A stretch of DNA of 64,000 bases from a virus: IMG/VR virus record IMGVR_UViG_3300046777_001575, positions 14,478 to 78,477 of that record, one strand, 5' to 3'. This document shows, piece by piece, positions 22,810 to 34,464 of the stretch. Made by a program: the position numbers and the translations under genes. The notes beneath the pieces are model-generated. The model saw only the letters and a program-made list of their open reading frames with translations. It was not told where the DNA came from and ran no database searches. Numbering within the stretch: position 1 is the first letter of the stretch; each line of letters opens with the position of its first letter.

Positions 22810-25800
22810 TTAAACTGGATCAACAACTACTTGGCTCCAGTTTACGTCAGAATATCCAGTATATCTATAGTTTCCAAACCTTAAAACCCTGCTATCGTCT
22901 ACTATAATCTTGTTTGTTCCTGTATAACTCTTATAAACTTCTGCTGGGTTCACACCATAGTAACTTGTTTCTGATAAGACCAGAACCTTGTTCCAATTAA
23001 ATGATCCGACATTCCAGAACTTCCAGTCCAAATCTGTCGCATTAAGCACCTTAACCCTAAACCAAGGCCTTTCAGAAACATTCTGAACCTCTTGCAAATT
23101 TGTTGACTGATAGAATGAAATATTGTTAAATAGCAATGGGCCAGTTAGTCTTATTGCTCCTTCAAAATATGAAAAATCTAAAATATTTGCAAAACTAATG
23201 CCAATAAATCCCCAGTCTTGAAGTGTAATTACTGGTTCTTTTACTATCTTGCCGTTCCAGTAAAACCCTATGCCATCTTGTATTAATCCAGTCTTAGAAT
23301 TAATTGCATAAATTTTTGCTCTTCGTCCGCTAGGATCGCAAGCAACAAGATAAAACTTTATATACGAATCACGACTTTCTATTTCAAAAATTTGTGTTGG
23401 TGCATATGGGAAATAGTCACCATCAAACCTAACAGCAAGTTGCATTGCAATAACCTTAAAACCATCAGATCTACTACTATTAACTGGAATCATAAGACCT
23501 CTATTTATTAGTGGATCATATTTTCCTTTTAACTGAATACCACTTGTTTTTGTTAAATAAAGATATGGAGATGACGCATTATAAATTGAAAATGGATTAT
23601 CCTTTTTAAAATTATAATATATGCCAGTTTTTGTATATGGGTATATTGGTGTTCCAAATCTAGTACCAATTGGGCTTGCATCTGATTCATTAAGTGCCTG
23701 AGAACAATAAGATAAATTTTTTATATTTACATTATTTATTTCAGAATTTTTTACATTTATATCTATATGCGTTACTATTGACAAATCATTAAAATCAACT
23801 CCAGAGGGTGGATAGATGATCATATTGTCTACAACCTCATACTTTGTTGTCATCCAATCTGAACCTGGAATTAGTACACCGTCTCTTGATGGTCTTTCTA
23901 TTTTTGTAAAATAAGAAGATGGCGCATTTGCCCCAAGTTCTGTATATTGAAAGGTTATGTATGTTTTTACAAGTGCCCCGTCAGTATCATATCTATAGTC
24001 TTTTGAAATTTTATTTTTTAAATCTTCATAATCATTATATCCAGTAAACAAATAATTATCTAAAGATTCATAGGTTCTTTGTATTGGGGATCCATACTGA
24101 TTAGCAAGATCTTCATATGTCCAAGCAACTGGACTAGTCTCTATTGCAATTGTTTTTGTTGGAATTGGATAATTAATATTAAATTGAATAAAATCAAGAT
24201 CAAAATATTGATCGCCTCTTTGATCAAGAACAGACTCTGCAAAATACGTTAATGGCAGATTATCTTCCCAATATGCGTTTGATGCAACAGCAAGTGTATA
24301 CTTGTCAAACAAGATATCGGGAATCAGGGTATAACTTGCAGTATGCTCAACTAAAAAGTCTTCCTCTAAAAGAATAACTCCTCCACCAGAAATTGCTCCT
24401 GGGGATGTATCTGTTGTCCCTCCGTAAGGTGGCAAAGATGTGGTATCAATTCCTGCATCAATATCTACTATTTCATTATTTTGATAGGCAAAGAATAAAT
24501 CTTCGTTTAACTTTGGAACCCCAACCTCATTAAATAAGTTTTTAATTTTTTGAAAATTATATTTAGTTGCAAATCCAACATTGTAAATTTTTCCATCAAA
24601 TGTTGCAGTGTTTGTTTTATCTCCACCAACGTACATTCTTAAATCTGAATAGGACCCAAAAAAATCTGATACAGGATTTCCAAAAACTTCTACAAATCTA
24701 GGGATATTAATACCTGCCTCAAAGAACTCATTGTTGTTTAAAATTTCAGAAGAATATAAGATTTCTGATTGTCCATTTATGCTTATAATATATTTTAAAA
24801 CATTATTTTCTACCTGTATCTTAAAATAATTAGAAGTATTTTCTTTTTCAATTTTAAAAAGTATTTGTGGGCCTATTACACTACCTTTTAATTGAAAACA
24901 TCCATAAAATGCTGAAACTGGAGTTTTTAAAACATCAAAATTTTCAAAAAATAAATATCCAGATACGTTATTCCACAAAGTATTTGGCTTAAATGAAAAA
25001 TATTCTCTATTATCATAAAAAAAGTTTGAAGCATCTTCTACTAAATTAGCAACCCTATTATCTTCAAACAATTCTAACTCTGTTTTAGAAGAAAGAAAAA
25101 CTTTTGGAAGTGGATGAGATATTACAGAAAGTGATCTATTTGATGTTGACATATTATCATTAAAACCCTGATTCCAGGAACCTATTTTAGGATAAGAATA
25201 ATTTGCAGTATAATCTGCAAAAGAGTAGTCAATTGCAACTGACGTACCGCTATATGCTGTATTTATATTTTCTGGAACCTCAACACCCTGGCCAAACACA
25301 TACCGTCTTTTTGCAACTTGGCTAGGAACCAAATATGGGTATATTCCAACACAGTCTACGTCTATTGGAGATACATCATCATAAGCATAAAAGCCAATCC
25401 AGTCTTGATCTTTGTTGTCGGTATTTAGTTTTGATGGCAAGTTTGCAGAATCCTGTGAATATGGAATTGATATAACCTCTTCTCCATTAATTAAAAAGGA
25501 TGCATTGTCTTTTCCAATCTTTAAATGAACAAGCATTGGCCTTGTCCACTCTCCAATATAGTTTGTTTTATACTCATTTCCAATTTTTAATCCTACAGAA
25601 GGGCCATCCACATAAACTCCATCTGTTGAACCAATAGGACCAATTATTCTTTTCCTAGTATTTGTGTAAGAGTTTATTCGAATCCATGTTTCAAGTGTAT
25701 ATTGTTTAAATTGTCCTAAAGAATTTAACATTCCAGCACCAGGAATAATTAAAGAAGGTTTTCCATTATTTTCAAATAAAGTTGTGTGCCCAGAAGTTCC

Positions 25801-26550
25801 ATAAATCAGTGGTATACCAGCATTTTTTGCTTTTATCATGTTATCAGAAACAAGATAATAGGCATTTAATTCTTGAAGACCATAGCATTTAGCAATAATC
25901 CCTTTGTGTGGAGACAAAGCAATTGTTGATGGAATATCTATAACGCTAGTTCCTAAAGAACTTGAAGCAAACTCTTCTGACCATTGGCCAAGAGTTATTC
26001 CGTTGACTCTAAATGCATGCTCTTCATTTTTATTTTCAACATATGTAATTTCAAATACTACCCTAATATTTGAGTCATCTGGTGGCGCATCAAAAGTTTC
26101 TGATATAAAAATCCATTTATTGTTTACAACTGTATCAAAATTTTTAAGATGGGTGACGGTTTGATCACTTGTCGTATCTACATATTCATACCCAATTGAT
26201 AAACTTGTAATATAGGAACTTTCTGAATAAAAATAACCACCTACACAAAATGTTTTTAGGTATTTACTTAAATCTTGTATGTTAATTAACTCTTGGCTTT
26301 TTGCAGTAATTGTTGTTGTTCCATCTAATGAACCAGTTGCAACAATTCTACCAACATAACTATCAATAAACGGTGTATCAGAAGTTTTGGTATATGCGCT
26401 TGCCAATCCACCATTTATTGACCAGTTAGAAAGATTTCTTTGTGACTCTGATATTAAAGAAATATAGTCTGCTCCATCATCAAGAGCCCATAGCCCAATA
26501 GGATGTTCTGCAAACACCTTTTCTGCATATAAGTTTGATAGAGTAGACAT
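22810..26550 (-). CDS. Large virion protein with concanavalin/LamG-like domains
   Basis: AEHPIGLWALDD N-terminus; YTLETWIRIN; MYVGGD…FDGKIY beta-sandwich motifs. Confidence 0.65.
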   Translation of the reverse strand: MSTLSNLYAEKVFAEHPIGLWALDDGADYISLISESQRNLSNWSINGGLASAYTKTSDTPFIDSYVGRIVATGSLDGTTTITAKSQELINIQDLSKYLKTFCVGGYFYSESSYITSLSIGYEYVDTTSDQTVTHLKNFDTVVNNKWIFISETFDAPPDDSNIRVVFEITYVENKNEEHAFRVNGITLGQWSEEFASSSLGTSVIDIPSTIALSPHKGIIAKCYGLQELNAYYLVSDNMIKAKNAGIPLIYGTSGHTTLFENNGKPSLIIPGAGMLNSLGQFKQYTLETWIRINSYTNTRKRIIGPIGSTDGVYVDGPSVGLKIGNEYKTNYIGEWTRPMLVHLKIGKDNASFLINGEEVISIPYSQDSANLPSKLNTDNKDQDWIGFYAYDDVSPIDVDCVGIYPYLVPSQVAKRRYVFGQGVEVPENINTAYSGTSVAIDYSFADYTANYSYPKIGSWNQGFNDNMSTSNRSLSVISHPLPKVFLSSKTELELFEDNRVANLVEDASNFFYDNREYFSFKPNTLWNNVSGYLFFENFDVLKTPVSAFYGCFQLKGSVIGPQILFKIEKENTSNYFKIQVENNVLKYIISINGQSEILYSSEILNNNEFFEAGINIPRFVEVFGNPVSDFFGSYSDLRMYVGGDKTNTATFDGKIYNVGFATKYNFQKIKNLFNEVGVPKLNEDLFFAYQNNEIVDIDAGIDTTSLPPYGGTTDTSPGAISGGGVILLEEDFLVEHTASYTLIPDILFDKYTLAVASNAYWEDNLPLTYFAESVLDQRGDQYFDLDFIQFNINYPIPTKTIAIETSPVAWTYEDLANQYGSPIQRTYESLDNYLFTGYNDYEDLKNKISKDYRYDTDGALVKTYITFQYTELGANAPSSYFTKIERPSRDGVLIPGSDWMTTKYEVVDNMIIYPPSGVDFNDLSIVTHIDINVKNSEINNVNIKNLSYCSQALNESDASPIGTRFGTPIYPYTKTGIYYNFKKDNPFSIYNASSPYLYLTKTSGIQLKGKYDPLINRGLMIPVNSSRSDGFKVIAMQLAVRFDGDYFPYAPTQIFEIESRDSYIKFYLVACDPSGRRAKIYAINSKTGLIQDGIGFYWNGKIVKEPVITLQDWGFIGISFANILDFSYFEGAIRLTGPLLFNNISFYQSTNLQEVQNVSERPWFRVKVLNATDLDWKFWNVGSFNWNKVLVLSETSYYGVNPAEVYKSYTGTNKIIVDDSRVLRFGNYRYTGYSDVNWSQVVVDPV

Positions 26551-26587
26551 TATAAGTCTATTTTACCATAGAAGACTTCTTATTTTT

Positions 26588-27082
26588 TTAATTTTTAGGA
26601 ACCCACAACTTCTCACTACCCTTATTGTGATACCTAGCCATCACAAATAGTAAGTCTGAAAGTCTGTTCAGATATTTTGCAATATTTGTATTTATACCAT
26701 CTATTTTCCAAACCTGACGCTCTGCTCTTCTAACAATAGTTCTGGCGTTGTGCAGTGGCCCAGTAGGTAATATAAAAGAGTGCAGCGGTTCTAAATATTT
26801 ATTATAATCATCTATAATATTTTCTAAATAGATAACTCTTTCTTCAGAAATTTTTATTGTTAACGCTCCAGCAAGTTCTGCACCTAAGTCAAAAAGATCA
26901 CTTTGAATTCTATCTGTAATATCATTATGAAATTCGATTGCCATACCGATAGCAGAATTTGCCTCATCTATCACACCAATAGCCTCTATCAGGTCGCTAC
27001 TTTTGTCTACTATTTTGTTGTTGGCGGTTGATGTTTTTCCACCGTCCCCTGTTTTTGTATAAATACGAGTTAGATGAACCAT
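26588..27082 (-). CDS. pduO: ATP:cob(I)alamin adenosyltransferase, PduO type
   Basis: IYTKTGDGG, GVIDEANSAIG, IQSDLFDLGAELA, FILP, ARTIVRRAER, YLNRLSDLLFVMAR. Start re-set to MVHLTR (TAATG overlap). Confidence 0.93.
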   Translation of the reverse strand: MVHLTRIYTKTGDGGKTSTANNKIVDKSSDLIEAIGVIDEANSAIGMAIEFHNDITDRIQSDLFDLGAELAGALTIKISEERVIYLENIIDDYNKYLEPLHSFILPTGPLHNARTIVRRAERQVWKIDGINTNIAKYLNRLSDLLFVMARYHNKGSEKLWVPKN

Positions 27083-27246
27083 TAGTGTCCCGTCAAAGAT
27101 CTCCAAATATCAATAGTCATCTGGTTTGCTATATATAGTGCACAAATATTTATAACTAGTTGAAAAATATATTCAATAGTTTTTGGTTTCTTTTTTTGCA
27201 AAGGAAACTGTATTACATTATTTAAATTTTTATATGCTAGTTTCAT
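27082..27246 (-). CDS. Small 54-aa putative membrane protein
   Basis: MKLAYKNLNNVIQFPLQKKKPKTIEYIFQLVINICALYIANQMTIDIWRSLTGH*; ATGA and TAATG overlaps with both neighbours. Confidence 0.7.
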   Translation of the reverse strand: MKLAYKNLNNVIQFPLQKKKPKTIEYIFQLVINICALYIANQMTIDIWRSLTGH

Positions 27247-27698
27247 GGAAACCTAACCTTGCCATTGTCAGCAAACACTAAGCCAATGGAGTCTCCTGGA
27301 TTCAAATATTGTTCATTAATTGCAAGTTGACCCCAGCCCCACTCTTTAGTAGGGAAAGGCAAAAATTGTTTTTCTTTAATAATAATTGCCCAATATGCTT
27401 TTTCTGATGGCATTCCGTCGCATGGCTCAATTGTTGCATTTGGCAAATTGTTTACTCGACAAACAACAGCGTCACCCCATCTTTTTGTACCTTCTATTGT
27501 TAAGCCAGCCTGTTTTAATAAGTCTAAGGCAATAATTTCTGTAGAAGATTCTACGCATTGATTTGACTTTGTATTATTATTTAATGAGCCGTAATCAATA
27601 TATAAATTAATACACTTACTGTCTTCATTTGTTACAAGAGGCAGACCAAAGAATGCCAGTGTAATAATGACTATAGACATTAATGTTTTTTGAATCAT
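27243..27698 (-). CDS. Exported transcobalamin-C-terminal-like (DUF4430-type beta-grasp) putative B12-binding protein
   Basis: N-terminal hydrophobic segment, then C..IDYG…C…ALDLLKQAG…VCRVNNLP…YW…W…LNPGDSIGLVF; lies between nrdJ and pduO. Confidence 0.65.
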   Translation of the reverse strand: MIQKTLMSIVIITLAFFGLPLVTNEDSKCINLYIDYGSLNNNTKSNQCVESSTEIIALDLLKQAGLTIEGTKRWGDAVVCRVNNLPNATIEPCDGMPSEKAYWAIIIKEKQFLPFPTKEWGWGQLAINEQYLNPGDSIGLVFADNGKVRFP

Positions 27699-27700
27699 TA

Positions 27701-29731
27701 CTATCCAATCTTTATTTCGCAATAATCAGTAGTGCAGTAAGCCTCACCTTGTGCTTCTAGATTATCTACTCCGTCGTAAATAGCACTAAAGTCAATATGC
27801 TTCAGTTTACCAATATAGGACTCATACTCTTCTTCAGTAATTTGAGTGTATGGCTGTTGTGGATAAACAGTATTTCCCATTGGCAGAAATGAGACTGCCT
27901 TTAATTGTCCCTCGTACATATGCAGTGCTGGGACAACATGCTTTGACTCTGTTTCCTTATCAAATGAAAGTGTTACAGAAACACCATTATCAGACCAGTA
28001 CTTCTGAGCAGTTGCAGCAAGTGCGATCTTTTCAAATAGGGTTACATCCTTTTCAGATCTTGGGTGACCTGACTTGATTGGGAAGTATACGACTGATGTG
28101 TTTGCTGATACTACGTCATCTTCGATTGTGTACCCTGCTGCTTTGAACAAGTGCATCATTGGATCTGTGTTTCCAAATCGAACTGCACGAAGGAAGAAGT
28201 TTCCTCCAGGTCCCCAGTGAACTCCAGGAGTTGCGCCAGAAAGAATTGAAACTGATCCTGATGGCTTAACTGTTGTTACACGAATTGATTCACGAACACA
28301 AAGCCATTCTGAATATGAGTGATCATATTTACGAATTGTTGTGTATCCTTCGTCCATCCATTCACGAACCGTTGGCAAACCTTTTTGATCAGCAAATGAT
28401 GCAATGCCAGTAAGTGATGTACCAATACGACGATTGCGCTGCATGATGCCATTAGTCTGTTGCCAGTGTGTTGGAACGAGTGTTACAGTCTTTCCATAAA
28501 GATATGCAAACTTCAGGGTACGCAGGAAGTCCTCCTTGGATTCATGACGATTCAGGTGCACTTCTACAAGTGTACACAATTCGTATGATTCCAATGGCTG
28601 CTCCGCACATGGGTTAAATCCCATCACACGATAATCTTTACCGTCTGGCGCATCCTTTAGTCGTCCATAATTACGAGCAACATCAAGCCAGATAAAACCT
28701 GGTTCTCCATTTTCTGTAATCAAATCTACATAGTCTTCATACTTAGTCCCCACCTCTGCTGAGATAGAGTTATTAGACATCCAAGCCCAACCTGGATTTT
28801 CTGGGTCAAAAGAATTGCGCTCTGGAAACACTTCTGCATTCTTAAGATTCATGAATGCTTGGTCACCTTCATTTCCTAAAGCAAGGGTTGCAGAACGACG
28901 AACATTGCCAGATACTACACAGGTACCAATTAGGTTTACTAGGTCTACAATGGCACGAGAATCTAGTGTTTCACCTGCTCTGGAGCCGATTACACGGTCT
29001 ATCTGATCATGCAACTTAATAAGAGGTGCAGGTCCCGATGCAACGCCACCAAAACCTTTAATTGGTGCTCCAAGAGGTCTAATTAAGTCATAATTAAACT
29101 TTTGAATACTTTGATTTGGTCTTAGGTAAGAGTTAATTAAAAGTCGTACCGACTCCACCCAACCCTCACGAGTGTCTGGAATTTCAAAGATCTCTTCTGG
29201 CTCCGTCGGTGTATAGATTGCAAAATTCTTATCCTGTCCAACAGTGTCAAAGCCTACACCAATGCCAAGCATTAATGCATCCATCACCCAAGCAAATAAG
29301 GCTCCTGGATCATTTTTATCAAGATCTTTTGTTGAAACCATTGCACAATTTTGTAGTGCTGCTGAGTTCTTCTTTTCCATAGTCATAGGAGTTCCAAATG
29401 CCCACATGCCACGACCTGGTGGTGTCCACTTTAACTCAAACATTCTCTGGAATGCTTCCTGTGCTGACTTCTGAGCCTTATAGTCATTCCATGGCAAACG
29501 ATTTTCCTTAGCATGATTCTTCTGTACGGAATACATACCCTCGATTACACGACGACAAACTTCGTGCCATCTTTCCTTAGTTCCATCTTCCTTCATTCGA
29601 GAATATGTACGAATAAAAGTAATCTCTCCAAGTGAATTTTCTGCTGCATCTTTGAATCCAAATGGGCTTTCTGCATTCTTGTACTTTTCTACAAAATCCT
29701 CTGGAAGTTTAAAACTAAAAAAATCTGACAT
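27701..29731 (-). CDS. nrdJ: Class II (AdoCbl-dependent) ribonucleotide reductase, monomeric RTPR type
   Basis: PPGRG, NPCAEQPL, TTVKPSG, C-terminal CTTDYC redox pair. Confidence 0.95.
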   Translation of the reverse strand: MSDFFSFKLPEDFVEKYKNAESPFGFKDAAENSLGEITFIRTYSRMKEDGTKERWHEVCRRVIEGMYSVQKNHAKENRLPWNDYKAQKSAQEAFQRMFELKWTPPGRGMWAFGTPMTMEKKNSAALQNCAMVSTKDLDKNDPGALFAWVMDALMLGIGVGFDTVGQDKNFAIYTPTEPEEIFEIPDTREGWVESVRLLINSYLRPNQSIQKFNYDLIRPLGAPIKGFGGVASGPAPLIKLHDQIDRVIGSRAGETLDSRAIVDLVNLIGTCVVSGNVRRSATLALGNEGDQAFMNLKNAEVFPERNSFDPENPGWAWMSNNSISAEVGTKYEDYVDLITENGEPGFIWLDVARNYGRLKDAPDGKDYRVMGFNPCAEQPLESYELCTLVEVHLNRHESKEDFLRTLKFAYLYGKTVTLVPTHWQQTNGIMQRNRRIGTSLTGIASFADQKGLPTVREWMDEGYTTIRKYDHSYSEWLCVRESIRVTTVKPSGSVSILSGATPGVHWGPGGNFFLRAVRFGNTDPMMHLFKAAGYTIEDDVVSANTSVVYFPIKSGHPRSEKDVTLFEKIALAATAQKYWSDNGVSVTLSFDKETESKHVVPALHMYEGQLKAVSFLPMGNTVYPQQPYTQITEEEYESYIGKLKHIDFSAIYDGVDNLEAQGEAYCTTDYCEIKIG

Positions 29732-29820
29732 GTGTTTCGTCCTTTCTAAAACGGAATAGAGTTAATTATAGCAGAGTTTTATTAAAAGTAAAACTCTACC
29801 TAAATGTATTGTTGAGAGTT

Positions 29821-30534
29821 TTATTTAAAAGTTTTCTTTTGCCAAAACTTAAGTCTATAACCATTTTGAAAAGTAGATCTAACCTTATTACTTTGTTCTT
29901 CTACTTTTTTTGTTGAGAAGTTTTTGTCTAATTCCATGACCCAATCTTCTCTTTTAAATGGAAAAATTTGAGACATTGGCGTTCCCTGCTTTATGGTTCC
30001 TTTAAAATTCTTTTTTATTAAAAAAGAAAGATGTCCATCAGTAAAATAGTTATCAGTATCAACTACAGCATCTATAGCCTTTAGTGGTGATGGTGGTTGG
30101 TGCATTGGGCTTGTAAAAAATGTGCTATATCCAGCACTAGTTTGTACCATCCAAGTAGGATGAATTCTTAAAATTTTATTGCAATAGATATCGCTATCTA
30201 TCGGCAAATGAGATACCTGTTCTTGTGAATGTTCACTTATTAATAAGGAGTAATACTTGTTCATGGCAGCAGGAAGTTGAATGTTAACATTTCCATCAGT
30301 TGTGTCTATATATATATCACATGGTACCTTTAGAAGATATCCCATTGCCATTGCATCAAAAAACGCTTGACATTTTTTTACTGTTAACCTCATGACACCC
30401 TTGTCAGGAACATCGCTACCTGAAATTGCAGGTTGCTCTTTATACCAAGTCGGAATATTTTTAGTTGCCTGCTCTGGTTCTGGAACAATATTAACTAATT
30501 GAGGATACATTTGAAGAAATCTAACAGTGTTCAT
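29821..30534 (-). CDS. Conserved phage hypothetical protein (possible dUTPase-like beta fold)
   Basis: TVKKC.AFFDAM..GY and IKQGTPMSQIFPFKRE motifs; fold assignment is tentative. Confidence 0.45.
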   Translation of the reverse strand: MNTVRFLQMYPQLVNIVPEPEQATKNIPTWYKEQPAISGSDVPDKGVMRLTVKKCQAFFDAMAMGYLLKVPCDIYIDTTDGNVNIQLPAAMNKYYSLLISEHSQEQVSHLPIDSDIYCNKILRIHPTWMVQTSAGYSTFFTSPMHQPPSPLKAIDAVVDTDNYFTDGHLSFLIKKNFKGTIKQGTPMSQIFPFKREDWVMELDKNFSTKKVEEQSNKVRSTFQNGYRLKFWQKKTFK

Positions 30535-30566
30535 ACAAGCCTTTCTTTTATATTAATTATATCATA

Positions 30567-30980
30567 TTAAAGGGTTTGCCACAATGTTAGATCCTGTAAT
30601 CCTAAAAGATAACTTGGAGCAACATAGAAATACAATAACTCCTCATCATCCTTTACAAATGTTGAGTTGTCTACTCCTTCGGACATTATTAAAATATTTT
30701 TAGAATTTGGCTCAACTACAACAAACTGGTCTTTAATATAAATATTTTCAATAATAGTATTTTTTTTATTTGTATATATTTTACCATAAAAAGACAAACT
30801 TTTATTAAATCCAGAAGTAAATTTTACTCCATTATGCTTATATAATATTTTTTCATTAGAAAACAAAACTTTATAGTCTTGTTTTTCATAATTTATATTA
30901 TTTTCTTTACACATTTTTTTTACTAGTTTATTAATAGATAATTCTACGCTAGTCTCTATATTATCAACAATGTATTTCAT
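30567..30980 (-). CDS. Hypothetical protein (very AT-rich)
   Basis: 137 aa; ATGA overlap with the upstream gene. Confidence 0.55.
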   Translation of the reverse strand: MKYIVDNIETSVELSINKLVKKMCKENNINYEKQDYKVLFSNEKILYKHNGVKFTSGFNKSLSFYGKIYTNKKNTIIENIYIKDQFVVVEPNSKNILIMSEGVDNSTFVKDDEELLYFYVAPSYLLGLQDLTLWQTL

Positions 30981-31486
30981 CTTCTTGAAACCATTCTACC
31001 AAAAAAAATATATGGATATATTGGTTGATCAAATAACTCTTCTCTTAAATCCAATGCTTCTTCTACTGGGGTATCTTTAATACGATCAGTATTTAAAGCA
31101 GCAGAAAACAATCTGTTTCCACTTTCTGGACCATAGTCGTGTTTTAAATTTTTGTTAAATAAAAAATATAGTAATTTTGCACCGTAAGCCAATGCTGCCT
31201 TACCTACACCATTATTCCTATATATTGGCGATACATACATTCTGTCTGTAAAAACATCTCCAGAATCATCATGTTTTTTCCATGTTGCGTATACTCCTGG
31301 GTAATCATTTAAAATATAGTCTCCAACATAAACAGACCCGCTTGGATATTTGTCATTAAAGTATACTATTGCTATTCCATCTATAGGGATTTTTCCTTCA
31401 AAGAATACATAGTGTACCCATCCACCTTCAAGTTCTTCTGGGTGCTTAAGTTCTTTAAAACCAGAAGTGTCTATACGCTCAAACAC
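30977..31486 (-). CDS. GNAT-like acyltransferase
   Basis: DRMYVSPIYRNNGVGKAAL matches the acetyl-CoA-binding motif A (V.P.YR..G.G). Confidence 0.6.
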   Translation of the reverse strand: MFERIDTSGFKELKHPEELEGGWVHYVFFEGKIPIDGIAIVYFNDKYPSGSVYVGDYILNDYPGVYATWKKHDDSGDVFTDRMYVSPIYRNNGVGKAALAYGAKLLYFLFNKNLKHDYGPESGNRLFSAALNTDRIKDTPVEEALDLREELFDQPIYPYIFFGRMVSRR

Positions 31487-31501
31487 AGAAAACTATTCTG
31501 A

Positions 31502-32743
31502 TCAGTATCCATCATAGACCAAGAAATGGTCTGTGTAAAACATATCATATGGTTCACAGTTAATAGAGATAACCTCATGTGGAAGGTTTGAAAGGATGAA
31601 CTCGGTTACTGGGGTCCATGTGTTAGTATCTGTTGACCATAGTTCGTCTGTTTCTAATACATCTGCAGCCATTATAATTCTGGCAACACCATCTCTTTTT
31701 ATAAGCATACCGTGATTTGCTGAATAAAACTCTCCGTTTAGAGATACGGCTTGCTCTGCTGTACGTGATCCTATATTTACAATTGTTGTTACCTTATCAG
31801 GAACCATCTGAAGATCGGATGGATTACGGCTCCAATTAGCAACATCTTGTAGTGTAAAGTTAGATCCTAATCCAGGAATTTCTGTAGAAACAAGTTGATC
31901 CCCAACCTTAAGAGTTGATGCCTGTGTATATCCATTTGTAGTTAAAACTAGTGTATACATACTAACAGATTTACCTGCACCGAATGCTCCGAATGCTGAG
32001 AAAGCACCGAAAGCACCGAATGCTCCGAATGCTGAGAAAGCACCAAAGGCACCGAAGGCTCCGAATGCTGAGAAAGCACCAAAGGCTCCGAAGGCACCAA
32101 AGGCACCAAAGGCTCCGAAGGCACCGAAGGCACCGAAGGCTCCGAAGGCACTAAATACTGTTGTAACTGATCCAGACTGACTAGAAGTTTGTGAATTACC
32201 ATTTGCATTTGTAGCATATACATTATATGTCTGTGCAGTACCTTGCTCTTGACCAACATCTACAGATGTTGAAGATGTATCTCCTGATTTTCCATCGTCA
32301 GAACTCCAACGATAATTAGTAATAGCCTTACCACCATTTGCTGGGGCTGACCATGAAACGGTATCTACACCTGCTGAAGGAGATGATGCTGATGGAGCAC
32401 TTGGCGTTGCTGGGACAGTTGTAACTAACACAGAAGATGATACTGAAGAATATGGAGATTCTCCACTAGCATTGATGGCCTTAACTGTAAAGGTATAGTT
32501 TGTGTTAGATGACAGTCCTTCTATACGAACTGGAGAAGAAGAACCTGTTGCAGTATGACCACCACTAGATAGCACTGTATATGATGTTGCTGCGTATACA
32601 CCTGATGGGGTAAACGCTACATCTACTGCGCCATTGTCATATGCTCTATTTGTTCCAACATCTGTTACTGATGTTATTGTTGGTGTTCCTGGGGCCAAAA
32701 AGTCATTGGCTCCTTGACTCATTCTGCCTGCTTGCTTTGACAT
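31502..32743 (-). CDS. Virion protein: two fibronectin type III domains, (F-G/S-A)20 repeat, C-terminal Hint domain
   Basis: FN3 (GLSSNTNYTFTVKAINASG; WSAPANGGKAITNY). Hint-like: SVSMYTLVLTTNG…LKVGD, YSANH, INCEPYDMFYTDHFLVYD. Confidence 0.8.
   Translation of the reverse strand: MSKQAGRMSQGANDFLAPGTPTITSVTDVGTNRAYDNGAVDVAFTPSGVYAATSYTVLSSGGHTATGSSSPVRIEGLSSNTNYTFTVKAINASGESPYSSVSSSVLVTTVPATPSAPSASSPSAGVDTVSWSAPANGGKAITNYRWSSDDGKSGDTSSTSVDVGQEQGTAQTYNVYATNANGNSQTSSQSGSVTTVFSAFGAFGAFGAFGAFGAFGAFGAFGAFSAFGAFGAFGAFSAFGAFGAFGAFSAFGAFGAGKSVSMYTLVLTTNGYTQASTLKVGDQLVSTEIPGLGSNFTLQDVANWSRNPSDLQMVPDKVTTIVNIGSRTAEQAVSLNGEFYSANHGMLIKRDGVARIIMAADVLETDELWSTDTNTWTPVTEFILSNLPHEVISINCEPYDMFYTDHFLVYDGY
31976..32155 (-). 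repeat. 9-bp-unit coding repeat: 20 tripeptides FGA/FSA
   Basis: 180 nt with varied synonymous codons. Confidence 0.95.
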
Positions 32744-32766
32744 ATCTTAATCTCCCTTAATTTGTA

Positions 32767-34464
32767 TTATGCTGATAAATCTCCGAAGACTAGCCATCCA
32801 CCTGGTGTCTTCATTGCTGTTGCAACTGAATTAGTTGTTCTAAATTTTAATCCAGGGGTTCCAACTACGCCATTGCTAGAACTAAACTGTGCCCCAGTAC
32901 CAGACTCTTGGTAAAAGTCAATTGACTGTCCAGTTGAGTATCCTGATGCAGGAAGTGTAATAGTTACGGCTCCTGTTAGTGGGACAAATTTGTCTGCTTC
33001 TCCTGCTGCAAGTGTTGCAGATGATGAGATTGCTGTTGCAAATGTTGTAATTGAAGGAACTCCAACCTTTGTCTGTGTACCGTCTGAAAACACTATACCA
33101 GATGAAGGAGTTACTGTCGTTGCCTCAAGTGCTCCAACCGCAAGGGCATCAAGTGATCCTTGTGTAAAGTCAACTGTTGTTGCTGGCTCTGTTGTTACAT
33201 CCTTAAACAACTTCCACTTAGAGTCAGATACGTCTCTTACGATACCTGCGTGATAGCCAGTCTGACCATCATTGTAGGCAACTACAAGACCAAGGTCAAC
33301 TGTGTTTGCTGCATTTTGATGAGCAAGTTGAACCATATTGTCTTCAATCACAATAGATGTTGCTGAGGCATTAAAACTTCCACCATTAACTGTTATATTT
33401 CCATCAACAACAAGGTTGCCGTCAATTTCCATATTTCCAGTAAATGTCTGATTTGCTGCATTTTTGTAAGCCAACTCTGCAGTATTTGTAATGCCATGTA
33501 CGTTCTCTGTTAGAGATGCGTGGGTGTTAACAGAAGTATCTACATAACTTGTAGTTGCAACTGTGTTATCTATATCAAATCTATTGTCAACTGAATTCCA
33601 ATCAATTCCTGTACCAGCAAGAGTTGATTGGTCTACAGTTGCACCGCTAATAGCGTTTGTCAAATCTGTTTGTGTTACAAGAAGTGATGTATCTGCAATT
33701 CCATGGACATTGGTTTCATCTAGATTGTGAACTGAGATTTTATCGTCTGCTGCTTGTCCTGCTGCTGTAATTGCTTCAGTTTTTGCTGTATCAATTGCTG
33801 ATGCTTGTGCTGCAGAAACTGGCTTATATTCATCTGCTGTGTCGTCTACATTTCCAAGTCCAACCATGGCCTTAGTAATACCAGAAACTGTTCCTGTAAA
33901 TGTTGGTGACTCAATAGGTGCTTTAAGACCAAGTGCTGTATTTACATCTGCAGTTAATGCTAGTGCTGATGTATCTGCAATCCCGTGAATATTTTCTGTA
34001 AGATTCTTATGAGCCAAAACACTGTTATCTGCATATTCTTTTGTTGCAATTTCTGCAGTATCTGCAATGCCGTGAACATTTATAGTATTTTGTGTATGAG
34101 TTAAAAGTGACTGTCCAAAGTAATCTCTTGCTTCTTGAAGAGCCCCTGTAGCAGTAACATTTATAAGATCAACTCTTTGATTTGTTGCGTATAGTGACAA
34201 AAAGTCAGGATTGTCACCAAGTGCTGCTGCTAACTCATTGAGTGTATTTAAAGTTTCTGGGGCTGCATCAATAAGATTATTGATTGCTGTCTCAAGTTCT
34301 GCTGCATTAGCAAAATATTGTAGGGCAGACCATGTGGATGTTCCATTTCCCATCTTAAATTTATTTGTGTCGGTTTCAAAACCGATCTCACCTGCTGCCA
34401 AAACTGGATTTGCAGCCGTCCATTGGGCTGCAGTACCTCTGCGCTGTTGCATTCTTGTTGCCAT
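32767..34464 (-). CDS. Tail fibre protein with Mtd/hyaluronidase-type N-terminal domain
   Basis: RMQQRRGTAAQWTAANPVLAAGEIGFETDT; APETLNTLNELAAAL; several VHGIADT repeats. Confidence 0.8.
   Translation of the reverse strand: MATRMQQRRGTAAQWTAANPVLAAGEIGFETDTNKFKMGNGTSTWSALQYFANAAELETAINNLIDAAPETLNTLNELAAALGDNPDFLSLYATNQRVDLINVTATGALQEARDYFGQSLLTHTQNTINVHGIADTAEIATKEYADNSVLAHKNLTENIHGIADTSALALTADVNTALGLKAPIESPTFTGTVSGITKAMVGLGNVDDTADEYKPVSAAQASAIDTAKTEAITAAGQAADDKISVHNLDETNVHGIADTSLLVTQTDLTNAISGATVDQSTLAGTGIDWNSVDNRFDIDNTVATTSYVDTSVNTHASLTENVHGITNTAELAYKNAANQTFTGNMEIDGNLVVDGNITVNGGSFNASATSIVIEDNMVQLAHQNAANTVDLGLVVAYNDGQTGYHAGIVRDVSDSKWKLFKDVTTEPATTVDFTQGSLDALAVGALEATTVTPSSGIVFSDGTQTKVGVPSITTFATAISSSATLAAGEADKFVPLTGAVTITLPASGYSTGQSIDFYQESGTGAQFSSSNGVVGTPGLKFRTTNSVATAMKTPGGWLVFGDLSA

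Follow-up and report, generated by a model that had tools for sequence, protein, structure and literature searches.

A phage gene cassette that places a candidate corrinoid-binding membrane protein between a class II ribonucleotide reductase and a PduO-type adenosyltransferase

Results

The stretch of DNA analysed here (the window) is 64,000 nt long and corresponds to positions 14,478-78,477 of the virus record IMGVR_UViG_3300046777_001575. Four closely spaced genes lie on its minus strand (Table 1), and their neighbours are virion and tail-fibre genes. The original prediction had described four genes joined by a short gap and two overlaps, and our reading of the sequence agreed with it in both coordinates and junctions: a 2-nt gap (27699-27700) separates the nrdJ stop from the ATG of X151, X151 and Y54 share an ATGA overlap, and Y54 and pduO share a TAATG overlap.

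Table 1. Positions of the cassette genes and upstream elements within the window
Feature	Position	Strand	Length	Description
Cassette nrdJ-X151-Y54-pduO	26588-29731	minus		Four genes
nrdJ	27701-29731	minus	676 aa	Predicted monomeric adenosylcobalamin-dependent ribonucleoside-triphosphate reductase (class II RTPR)
X151	27243-27698	minus	151 aa from ATG	Candidate corrinoid-binding, transcobalamin-beta-like protein
Y54	27082-27246	minus	54 aa	Single-pass membrane micro-protein, phage-specific
pduO	26588-27082	minus	164 aa from ATG	Predicted PduO-type ATP:cob(I)alamin adenosyltransferase
Promoter-like site	29765..29792	minus		TTTACT-16 nt-TGcTATAAT, 34 nt 5' of the nrdJ ATG
RNA hairpin	29770..29800	minus	12 bp	Overlaps the -35 hexamer and spacer

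NrdJ scored 340.8 bits on the RTPR model TIGR02505, barely above the equivalog cut-off of 340.05, and was found to contain the RNR_Alpha domain (PF17975, 9.6e-32) as well as the class II insertion domain (PF21995, 2.1e-14); its match to phrog_367 reached 1.1e-142. Based on the equivalog score and the class II-specific domains, we assign it to the monomeric class II reductases. The pduO product matched PF01923 with 155.4 bits (cut-off 24; E 1.9e-45) and the N-terminal domain model TIGR00636 with 149.9 bits against a cut-off of 108.45, which places it by sequence among the PduO-type adenosyltransferases. Both enzyme calls of the original prediction were thus upheld. Among 50,697 deposited phage genome records PduO is nearly absent; it was present in 15, most of which are short fragments.

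Gene order was compared in 80 related viral loci. The order X-Y-pduO was unbroken, with the same overlaps, in 77/77 loci with enough downstream sequence, and nrdJ was located directly 5' of X in 68 of the 70 loci with enough upstream sequence, so that the conservation of the four-gene order, which had been proposed as a check, was borne out. The linkage persists although identity ranges over 27-97% in nrdJ and 45-87% in pduO. One phage group, whose nrdJ genes are 81-97% identical, contributes most of the 80 loci; the X-Y-pduO trio was also observed beside nrdJ genes of 64% and 27% identity, with pduO at 45-48%, and in a complete 134-kb genome from another lineage. It is kept even without an adjoining nrdJ, with the RNR gene 20 kb off, and a second order, nrdJ-pduO-X-Y', also occurs. 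Identity of X across the fetched loci is only 51-69%, yet 35 of its columns are invariant. This gene arrangement is far beyond chance.

X151 has a hydrophobic N-terminal stretch at residues 5-23 (KD 2.18) and four invariant cysteines (C29, C48, C80 and C93). We predict it to be a 4-Cys beta-grasp protein anchored in the membrane in type II orientation (N-in, C-out), with its domain outside the cytoplasm. Pfam, PHROG and NCBIfam models gave no match for X151. PF14478 (DUF4430) did not match it in hmmscan even at E up to 10, nor was this domain found in a six-frame search across the whole phage record, and the NCBIfam model of the SCO2322 family, NF040672, likewise gave no match. A tblastn search of the 50,697 phage records and a genome-contig scan using the phage alignment found nothing, and a profile search of PDB sequences returned chance matches only (CDC14B2, E 0.5). 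In BFVD, no match was obtained at E <=0.001, the best being an uncharacterized pandoravirus protein (E 0.03, probability 0.77).

Overall, the AF2 model of X151 has medium quality (pLDDT 77), with a core at residues 31-110 that reaches 82-94 and a conserved loop at residues 105-125 that is poorly modelled. When this model was searched against 48,161 representative chains, only five reached Z >=8, and these are the beta domains of transcobalamin, haptocorrin and intrinsic factor together with the DUF4430 protein 3u7z (PDB 2bb6, 5no0, 4kki, 2pmv and 3u7z). Superposition on them gave Z values of about 10-10.9 and an rmsd of 2.5-2.7 Å over 93-96 residues; the next-best fold had a Z of 6.5. Foldseek, which had been suggested as a check against the transcobalamin beta domain, returned transcobalamin-type structures with a probability of 1.00 and E about 2e-3. 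The model thus places X151 in the transcobalamin beta-domain fold, well above generic beta-grasp proteins. Using hhalign, the comparison with three actinobacterial DUF4430 proteins gave a probability of 11% (E 2.7e-3) for the phage alignment and 34% (E 4.4e-4) for the alignment of cellular relatives; the alignment is collinear across the AYW and GD-x-(V/I) motifs and is marginal, the DUF4430 side comprising 3 rows. The likeness to DUF4430 and transcobalamin-C domains that had been claimed for this protein therefore holds for the fold (Z 10.1-10.9) but not for membership of the Pfam DUF4430 family.

The beta-grasp-derived fold that X151 is modelled to have in common with these domains spans about 93-96 residues, and both are extracytoplasmic, in the case of X151 by prediction. 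The isolated beta domain of transcobalamin alone binds cobalamin and cobinamide (PMC5599065). Identity between X151 and the transcobalamin-type domains is only 11-20%, and X151 differs from them in its four family-specific cysteines, its WGWGQ loop and its membrane anchor. In the phage it has no accompanying alpha domain and is paired with a micro-protein.

That micro-protein, Y54, was present in 77/77 loci, always after X and with the ATGA overlap conserved. Its TM core comprises residues 27-45, flanked by a charge of +6 on the N-terminal and 0 on the C-terminal side. The C-terminus reads W-R-S-(L/M/V)-T-G-H in the cassette, and W-R-x-x-T-G-(H/C) is invariant across phages. Since these residues are encoded by varying synonymous codons, selection acts on the peptide itself rather than on a signal in the RNA. 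In the order nrdJ-pduO-X-Y', Y' again overlaps X by ATGA and pduO is not downstream, which indicates that Y travels with X and not with pduO. Y54 had no match in Pfam, PHROG or NCBIfam, no longer or fused homologues were found, and no Y-like motif was seen in cellular loci. Y54 is a real, conserved and phage-specific partner of X.

Cellular relatives of X were identified in actinobacteria, where the phage X alignment matched a set of lipoproteins with an hhalign probability of 99.95% (E 2.5e-38). The relatives carry a predicted export signal, either a lipobox Cys or a TM anchor, and some are fused to alpha/alpha toroids resembling the transcobalamin alpha domain; one relative (P0229) matches PF01122 weakly. 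PF14478 did not match the distant cellular relatives, and NF040672 gave weak, sub-threshold scores (17.7 and 27.8 bits; cut-off 85). A metagenome scan using a single protein (P0129) found nothing.

The genomic context of these relatives was that of vitamin B12. In low-GC freshwater actinobacteria, X is a stand-alone gene without ECF neighbours, and an AdoCbl riboswitch (RF01482) ends just 5' of it in 8/9 loci; an nhmmer profile detected this riboswitch before X in 64 of 68 such loci. High-GC actinobacterial X was found in cobalamin-riboswitch operons with ECF transporter genes, and in 8/18 of these loci RF00174 is present 1.2-1.7 kb before X, on the same strand. One operon (L163) runs in the order riboswitch, SCO2321-family toroid protein, X, toroid protein, X, CbiQ, two ABC genes and an ECF S component. 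More distant relatives adjoin a riboswitch-controlled metE, or metH. In Microbacteriaceae, an ECF T-A-A' fusion comes after X in 79/80 loci and an S-like protein in 73/80, with metH next in 64/80; no riboswitch was found in 10 of these loci, a result that is uninformative because three whole genomes of this family have no detectable cobalamin riboswitch at all. Phage X groups in the tree with the riboswitch-controlled freshwater cellular X (support 98/92 and 100/99). The cellular relatives of X belong to the B12 regulon, and their position beside ECF genes, riboswitches and metH agrees with the expectation that such proteins accompany Gram-positive ECF transporters for B12. They define an unannotated, riboswitch-controlled actinobacterial family of likely extracytoplasmic B12 binders that serve ECF importers.

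At the phage X loci themselves, no cobalamin or AdoCbl riboswitch was found. This may be read as a deliberate release from B12 repression. We found no gene for an ABC ATPase, CbiQ or ECF S component in the phage record, and no ABC ATPase in the complete 134-kb relative.

A single promoter had been predicted ahead of the operon. The promoter-like site upstream of nrdJ has 10/12 matches and an extended -10 TG, but the region holds 9 such sites against 11.7 expected from shuffles; since this is no higher than chance, we describe the promoter as consistent with the sequence and go no further. The 94-nt intergenic RNA has an MFE of -16.4 kcal/mol (z -3.1), and no U tract follows its hairpin, which is possibly a terminator or attenuator of the upstream gene. 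No terminator-like site was found between pduO and the following gene. In contigs from RNA libraries, which may contain DNA, nrdJ was well covered, X151 thinly and pduO almost not at all, weakly suggesting that the cassette is transcribed.

Discussion

The best explanation of these observations, to which we give a probability of about 0.65, is that the cassette provides a riboswitch-free capture of B12 that feeds a host importer, then PduO and then NrdJ, with X151 as a candidate corrinoid binder. This abundant uncultured lake phage has its host among the freshwater actinobacteria, the dominant members of which are unable to synthesise B12; acI bacteria, which lack B12 synthesis, carry a riboswitch-controlled ECF module (PMC5301498). 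The cassette would represent auxiliary metabolism by which the phage secures adenosylcobalamin for its ribonucleotide reductase in a host that would be unable to make B12 and would repress its B12-uptake genes via riboswitches. X151 would be the phage's version of a B12-regulon protein of the host; its N-terminal anchor would hold it to the outside of the cytoplasmic membrane, and two disulfides would stabilise it. Driven by a phage promoter without a riboswitch, it would capture corrinoid at the cell surface and, because the phage encodes no transporter, hand it to the ECF-type B12 importer of the host. Y54, translationally coupled to X151, would span the membrane with its invariant C-terminus beside X151; its probable role is to complete or dock the binding module, and it may, as the original prediction suggested, link X151 to a host transporter. 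Inside the cell, PduO would adenosylate cob(I)alamin to AdoCbl, which NrdJ would use in supplying dNTPs for phage DNA. The phage probably boosts vitamin capture by a B12-starved host in order to feed its own replication. The phage has no alpha-domain partner for X151, which counts against B12 capture.

A different role for the two membrane proteins would be to bind surface corrinoid so as to mask, replace or block a B12-uptake receptor of the host (superinfection exclusion), or to withhold B12 from it. In other bacteria, proteins for B12 uptake are well-known receptors of phages, X151 would be the phage's diverged version of a surface protein of its host, and the surroundings of the cassette are virion and tail-fibre genes. 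We nevertheless consider this improbable, since stopping B12 entry would starve the phage NrdJ, and X-Y is tied to pduO in 77/77 loci and to nrdJ in 68/70, occurring with B12 enzymes also in the second gene order and where the RNR gene is 20 kb distant. This constant company is better accounted for by metabolic supply than by exclusion. Y54 in turn could be no partner of X151 at all, being instead a small membrane protein with no relation to it, for example holin-like, or no more than a spacer that couples translation of pduO, as its very short length, its restriction to these phages and its overlap with the pduO start codon would allow. That the peptide stays behind X through the ATGA overlap in nrdJ-pduO-X-Y', and not before pduO, and that its C-terminal residues are invariant under varying codons, makes this unlikely as well.

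It is less probable still that the ligand of X151 is heme or another tetrapyrrole, cobalt or a non-tetrapyrrole, and that its place between nrdJ and pduO is incidental. A common fold is no proof of a common ligand, the PDB title of 3u7z is that of a putative metal-binding protein, and in the Firmicute L. sakei an ECF operon that includes transcobalamin alpha- and beta-like proteins is claimed to serve in heme import (bioRxiv 10.1101/864751). Against this, the nearest cellular relatives of X151 lie directly behind AdoCbl riboswitches, the distant ones reside in cobalamin-riboswitch operons by a riboswitch-controlled metE or adjoin metH, and both flanking phage genes encode B12 enzymes. Finally, the linkage might simply reflect the shared ancestry of close phages, with X and Y as passengers that have no role in B12 supply. 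The dominance of one phage group among the 80 loci, with nrdJ at 81-97% identity, speaks for it; the occurrence of the trio with nrdJ of 64% and 27% and pduO of 45-48%, in the 134-kb lineage and in a rearranged order, and the 35 invariant columns kept by X at 51-69% identity, leave it with very little likelihood.

The proposed supply of B12 to NrdJ also has a more specific form, possible though rather doubtful, in which X151 and Y54 constitute a minimal two-piece membrane trap for B12. The W-R-x-x-T-G-(His/Cys) terminus of Y54 would here replace the absent transcobalamin-alpha-like domain, act as a lid or axial cobalt ligand and dock the host ECF importer, so that uptake would be de-repressed. 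Small ECF metal-transporter subunits such as CbiN and NikN are tiny membrane proteins encoded beside, and needed with, the substrate-capture component. Y54 resembles them by analogy, as a very small membrane protein adjoining a putative capture component; it differs in having one TM segment and not two, in showing no sequence relation to them and in occurring in phages alone.

The cellular relatives of X151 are found in ECF operons of the kind represented by lsa1836-1840 of L. sakei, the actinobacterial SCO2321/SCO2322-type loci and the putative B12 module of acI. Operons with these relatives are governed by cobalamin riboswitches and encode, besides a toroid and a beta-like protein, CbiQ, two ATPases and an S component. 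The logic of an extracytoplasmic binder that delivers to an ECF importer would be common to such operons and the cassette, whereas the phage has the beta-like piece and Y54 alone, with no transporter, toroid protein or riboswitch. As with other auxiliary metabolic genes of phages, such as class II RTPR in virioplankton and cobS/cobT in aquatic phages, a host-like gene would remove a bottleneck of replication; the cassette differs from these in combining the user enzyme, the cofactor activator and a candidate capture module in one translationally coupled unit.

We found no description of a phage pduO-nrdJ module, of SCO2322 or of DUF4430 with B12 in bacteria in the literature, in agreement with the original prediction, which knew of no described phage module with this whole B12 supply chain. 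Lakes hold little B12 (PMC5301498), yet many aquatic viruses depend on a B12-dependent reductase. Whether these viruses manipulate B12 acquisition has so far been a matter of speculation (PMC10547690), and the cassette gives this question concrete and abundant genes: a candidate surface binder, a phage-only micro-protein and an adenosyltransferase. If the two-piece trap were true, the vitamin uptake of a B12-auxotrophic host would be rewired and de-repressed during infection; it would be the first virus-encoded device for extracellular vitamin capture and would tie viral infection to the flux of B12 in lakes. Cassette genes were observed on at least 135 viral contigs, and cassette DNA in sequencing runs from 14 studies.

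Cassette organisation and its two enzymes

The cassette (26588-29731) consists of four minus-strand genes, in which the X151 and Y54 genes (working names for the 151- and 54-aa products; X and Y denote their families) lie between nrdJ and pduO. The 2-nt gap, the ATGA overlap and the TAATG overlap of the original prediction were all seen at the three junctions.

Features of the cassette and of the region upstream of nrdJ
Feature	Position	Strand	Remark
nrdJ	27701-29731	-	first gene of cassette
X151	27243-27698	-	151 aa
Y54	27082-27246	-	54 aa
pduO	26588-27082	-	last gene of cassette
TTTACT-16-TGcTATAAT promoter-like site	34 nt upstream of nrdJ	-	sequence match
12-bp hairpin	29770-29800	-	overlaps -35 hexamer and spacer of candidate nrdJ promoter

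NrdJ carries the RNR_Alpha and class II insertion domains and narrowly exceeds the cut-off of the curated model for monomeric adenosylcobalamin-dependent triphosphate reductases. These matches agree with its proposed identity as a B12-dependent enzyme, a class II AdoCbl-dependent triphosphate reductase, and the last gene is a clear PduO-type adenosyltransferase. The closest nrdJ (64.6% nucleotide identity) belongs to Actinomycetia phage DSL-LC01 from a lake, in which the other three cassette genes are absent beside nrdJ. Of 50,697 deposited phage records, only 15 contained PduO homologues, and these records were mostly short fragments. The PduO matches H6-H17, in records labelled 'Listeria', 'Enterococcus' or 'Salmonella' phage, lie on short unannotated fragments of 2-34 kb and may be host DNA instead of phage genes.

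X151 resembles the transcobalamin beta domain

X151 matched no Pfam, PHROG or NCBIfam model even at E 10, and its 170 close homologues in metagenomes are all unnamed. Their alignment revealed an N-terminal hydrophobic anchor, four invariant cysteines, a WGWGQ loop and a GDSIGLV motif. An AlphaFold2 model built on this alignment had an overall pLDDT of 77, with 82-94 by 10-residue block in the core (residues 31-110) and a poorly predicted conserved loop. Foldseek ranked the DUF4430 protein 3u7z and the beta domains of transcobalamin, haptocorrin and intrinsic factor at the top, and on re-alignment the top 15 entries scored Z 10.0-10.9, the next 6.6. A search of 48,161 representative chains, independent of Foldseek, returned exactly five at Z 10.1-10.9 (transcobalamin twice, 3u7z, haptocorrin and intrinsic factor), followed by a generic beta-grasp fold at Z 6.5. 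Since only these proteins stand out and the three structure comparisons agree, the modelled X151 has the transcobalamin-beta-like fold predicted for it, without Pfam membership. The suggestion that it is a DUF4430 domain was thus not borne out at the Pfam level, and a profile-profile comparison of the X family with three genuine actinobacterial DUF4430 proteins was marginal.

Cellular relatives of X151 belong to a B12 regulon

Among 1.8 billion representatives, a profile search identified 339 relatives of X151. Those at greater distance are lipoproteins of actinobacteria whose homology to the phage proteins is clear (hhalign probability 99.95%). Several carry a fusion to alpha/alpha toroid domains, which share their fold class with the alpha domain of transcobalamin, and one weakly matches a eukaryotic cobalamin-binding family. 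Three independent genomic contexts tie the X family to B12, and the expectation that transcobalamin-like proteins lie beside Gram-positive ECF transporters holds for these cellular relatives, judging by ECF genes, riboswitches and metH.

Among 80 Microbacteriaceae genomes, X precedes an ECF T-A-A' fusion in 79 and a multi-span S-like protein in 73, and metH, encoding B12-dependent methionine synthase, lies just past the ECF genes in 64. The arrangement of X-family lipoprotein, T-A-A' fusion, S-like membrane protein and convergent metH (loci L083-L162, for example L123:6926-14233) is kept across many genera. In three whole Microbacteriaceae genomes, no protein except MetH had a B12-binding domain that passed the Pfam cut-off, and neither PduO nor a cobalamin riboswitch was present; one of the three has a strong NrdJ-like match (384 bits) just under the cut-off. 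In Aurantimicrobium, a 7-bladed YVTN beta-propeller gene (L123:4538-5728) lies upstream of the X-ECF operon and is probably unrelated to it, being present in only one of the 80 loci.

In other high-GC actinobacteria, a same-strand cobalamin riboswitch lies 1.2-1.7 kb upstream of X in 8 of 18 loci. The best-resolved operon (locus L163) reads riboswitch, SCO2321-family toroid protein, X, toroid protein, X, CbiQ, double ATPase and ECF S component, and adjoins a riboswitch-controlled metE. Two loci, L178:1713-5798 and L179:3456-5376, have divergent back-to-back pairs of cobalamin riboswitches, and those of L178 each lead an operon that includes a separate X-family gene. In L167/L261 (G180:C1:3652211-3659127), about 6.5 kb separates an X-family gene from a genuine Pfam DUF4430 gene, with an opposite-strand cobalamin riboswitch adjacent, so the two beta-like families can co-occur.

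On freshwater metagenome contigs of 40-44% GC, with the housekeeping genes NadA, DUF3043, GcvT, PepA and Lpd, X is a stand-alone gene, and an AdoCbl riboswitch ends immediately upstream of it. Rfam detected this arrangement in 8 of 9 loci, and a profile built from those eight did so in 64 of 68. The protein resembles phage X151 in its membrane anchor, IPxPF...W-x-W loop and C-terminal FP. In a maximum-likelihood tree the phage X group joins freshwater cellular X (support 98/92, within a 100/99 clade), beside Microbacteriaceae; as the tree is unrooted, we can only infer the direction of transfer between cells and phages.

Conservation of the cassette and of Y54 in phages

At least 135 IMG/VR contigs contain X151 relatives, of which 80 loci were fetched for synteny. 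The proposed four-gene order is kept: X-Y-pduO is contiguous in 77/77 and nrdJ lies directly upstream in 68/70, and linkage persists despite identities of 27 to 97% for nrdJ and 45 to 87% for pduO. The two loci without adjacent nrdJ still have X-Y-pduO, one with an RNR-like gene 20 kb away. The cassette is also present in a complete 134-kb genome with terminal repeats. A second order, nrdJ-pduO-X-Y', occurs in a further group of phages, in L181:5315-8730 and in L183, L184 and L185 (contigs of about 44-47% GC). Y' (about 60 aa) has an ATGA overlap with X and ends V-W-R-(F/I)-C-T-G-C, with Cys replacing the His of Y54, so the terminal residue of Y can be either. Because Y' stays after X, Y is the companion of X and not of pduO.

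Wherever a viral locus extends far enough, an ORF of 41-54 aa occupies the Y54 position. The X/Y ATGA overlap is kept in nearly all (a few lineages have a 10-nt overlap or a damaged 5' end) and the one-base Y/pduO overlap always. The C-terminal W-R-S-(L/M/V)-T-G-H is invariant, with four Arg, four Ser, three Thr, three Gly and two His codons in use; residues fixed while codons vary point to the peptide, and not an RNA signal, as the target of selection. Y54 has a positive N-flank (+6), a single hydrophobic span and a neutral C-terminal tail, which predicts an N-in, C-out topology that would place the tail on the side of the X151 domain. Neither a Y-like ORF in cellular loci nor a longer Y54 homologue was found.

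Proposed role in B12 capture

No riboswitch was found in the cassette or any phage locus. The IMG/VR record of the window encodes neither an ABC ATPase nor CbiQ nor an ECF S component, and ABC ATPases are also missing from three related phage records, one of them the complete genome. The acI-type freshwater actinobacteria are unable to synthesise B12, and their riboswitch-controlled ECF module is thought to be a B12 importer (PMC5301498). In transcobalamin, the beta domain in isolation is able to hold cobalamin, whose presence is required for it to recruit the alpha domain (PMC5599065). On these grounds we propose a capture-activate-use sequence, in which X151 would be a riboswitch-free, phage-expressed copy of the host surface B12 binder, increasing B12 capture at the membrane and feeding the host importer. 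Y54 would complete or dock the capture module, PduO would produce AdoCbl and NrdJ would consume it. If the host used B12 only in MetH, as is largely the case in the three Microbacteriaceae genomes, it would lack an adenosyltransferase, which would account for the constant presence of pduO in the cassette.

A role of X151 and Y54 in receptor masking or exclusion is an unlikely alternative that fits poorly with their constant company of two B12 enzymes. One Firmicute study of a related ECF system (bioRxiv 10.1101/864751) suggests a ligand other than B12, such as heme, but the riboswitches and metH/metE neighbourhoods of the X family speak for B12. That X and Y merely hitch-hike is countered by their conservation across lineages and arrangements.

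Class II RNR, PduO, the transcobalamin-like beta fold and ECF operons with exported transcobalamin-like proteins are all of known kinds. What is new is their assembly in a virus, an X sequence family outside every curated library, a phage-only partner peptide and the implied freeing of B12 capture from riboswitch control. A literature search found no description of the cassette; enhanced B12 uptake by RTPR viruses is an explicit speculation in one paper (PMC10547690).

Transcription and genomic setting

The operon had been placed behind a single promoter. A matching site is present upstream of nrdJ, but the region shows no enrichment of such sites, which leaves this promoter only plausible. 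The hairpin could terminate the transcript of the upstream gene or modulate promoter use. As no terminator-like site was found 3' of pduO, co-transcription of the cassette with structural genes is possible. Weak support for transcription comes from exactly matching contigs that span the nrdJ/X junction and fall inside X; they stem from RNA libraries, which can contain DNA. The source is a 78.5-kb IMG/VR viral record of 72% estimated completeness. The cassette is embedded in a virion-gene block (22810-34464), with a 1246-aa fibre-like gene on one side and phrog_7084, GNAT and fibre genes on the other.
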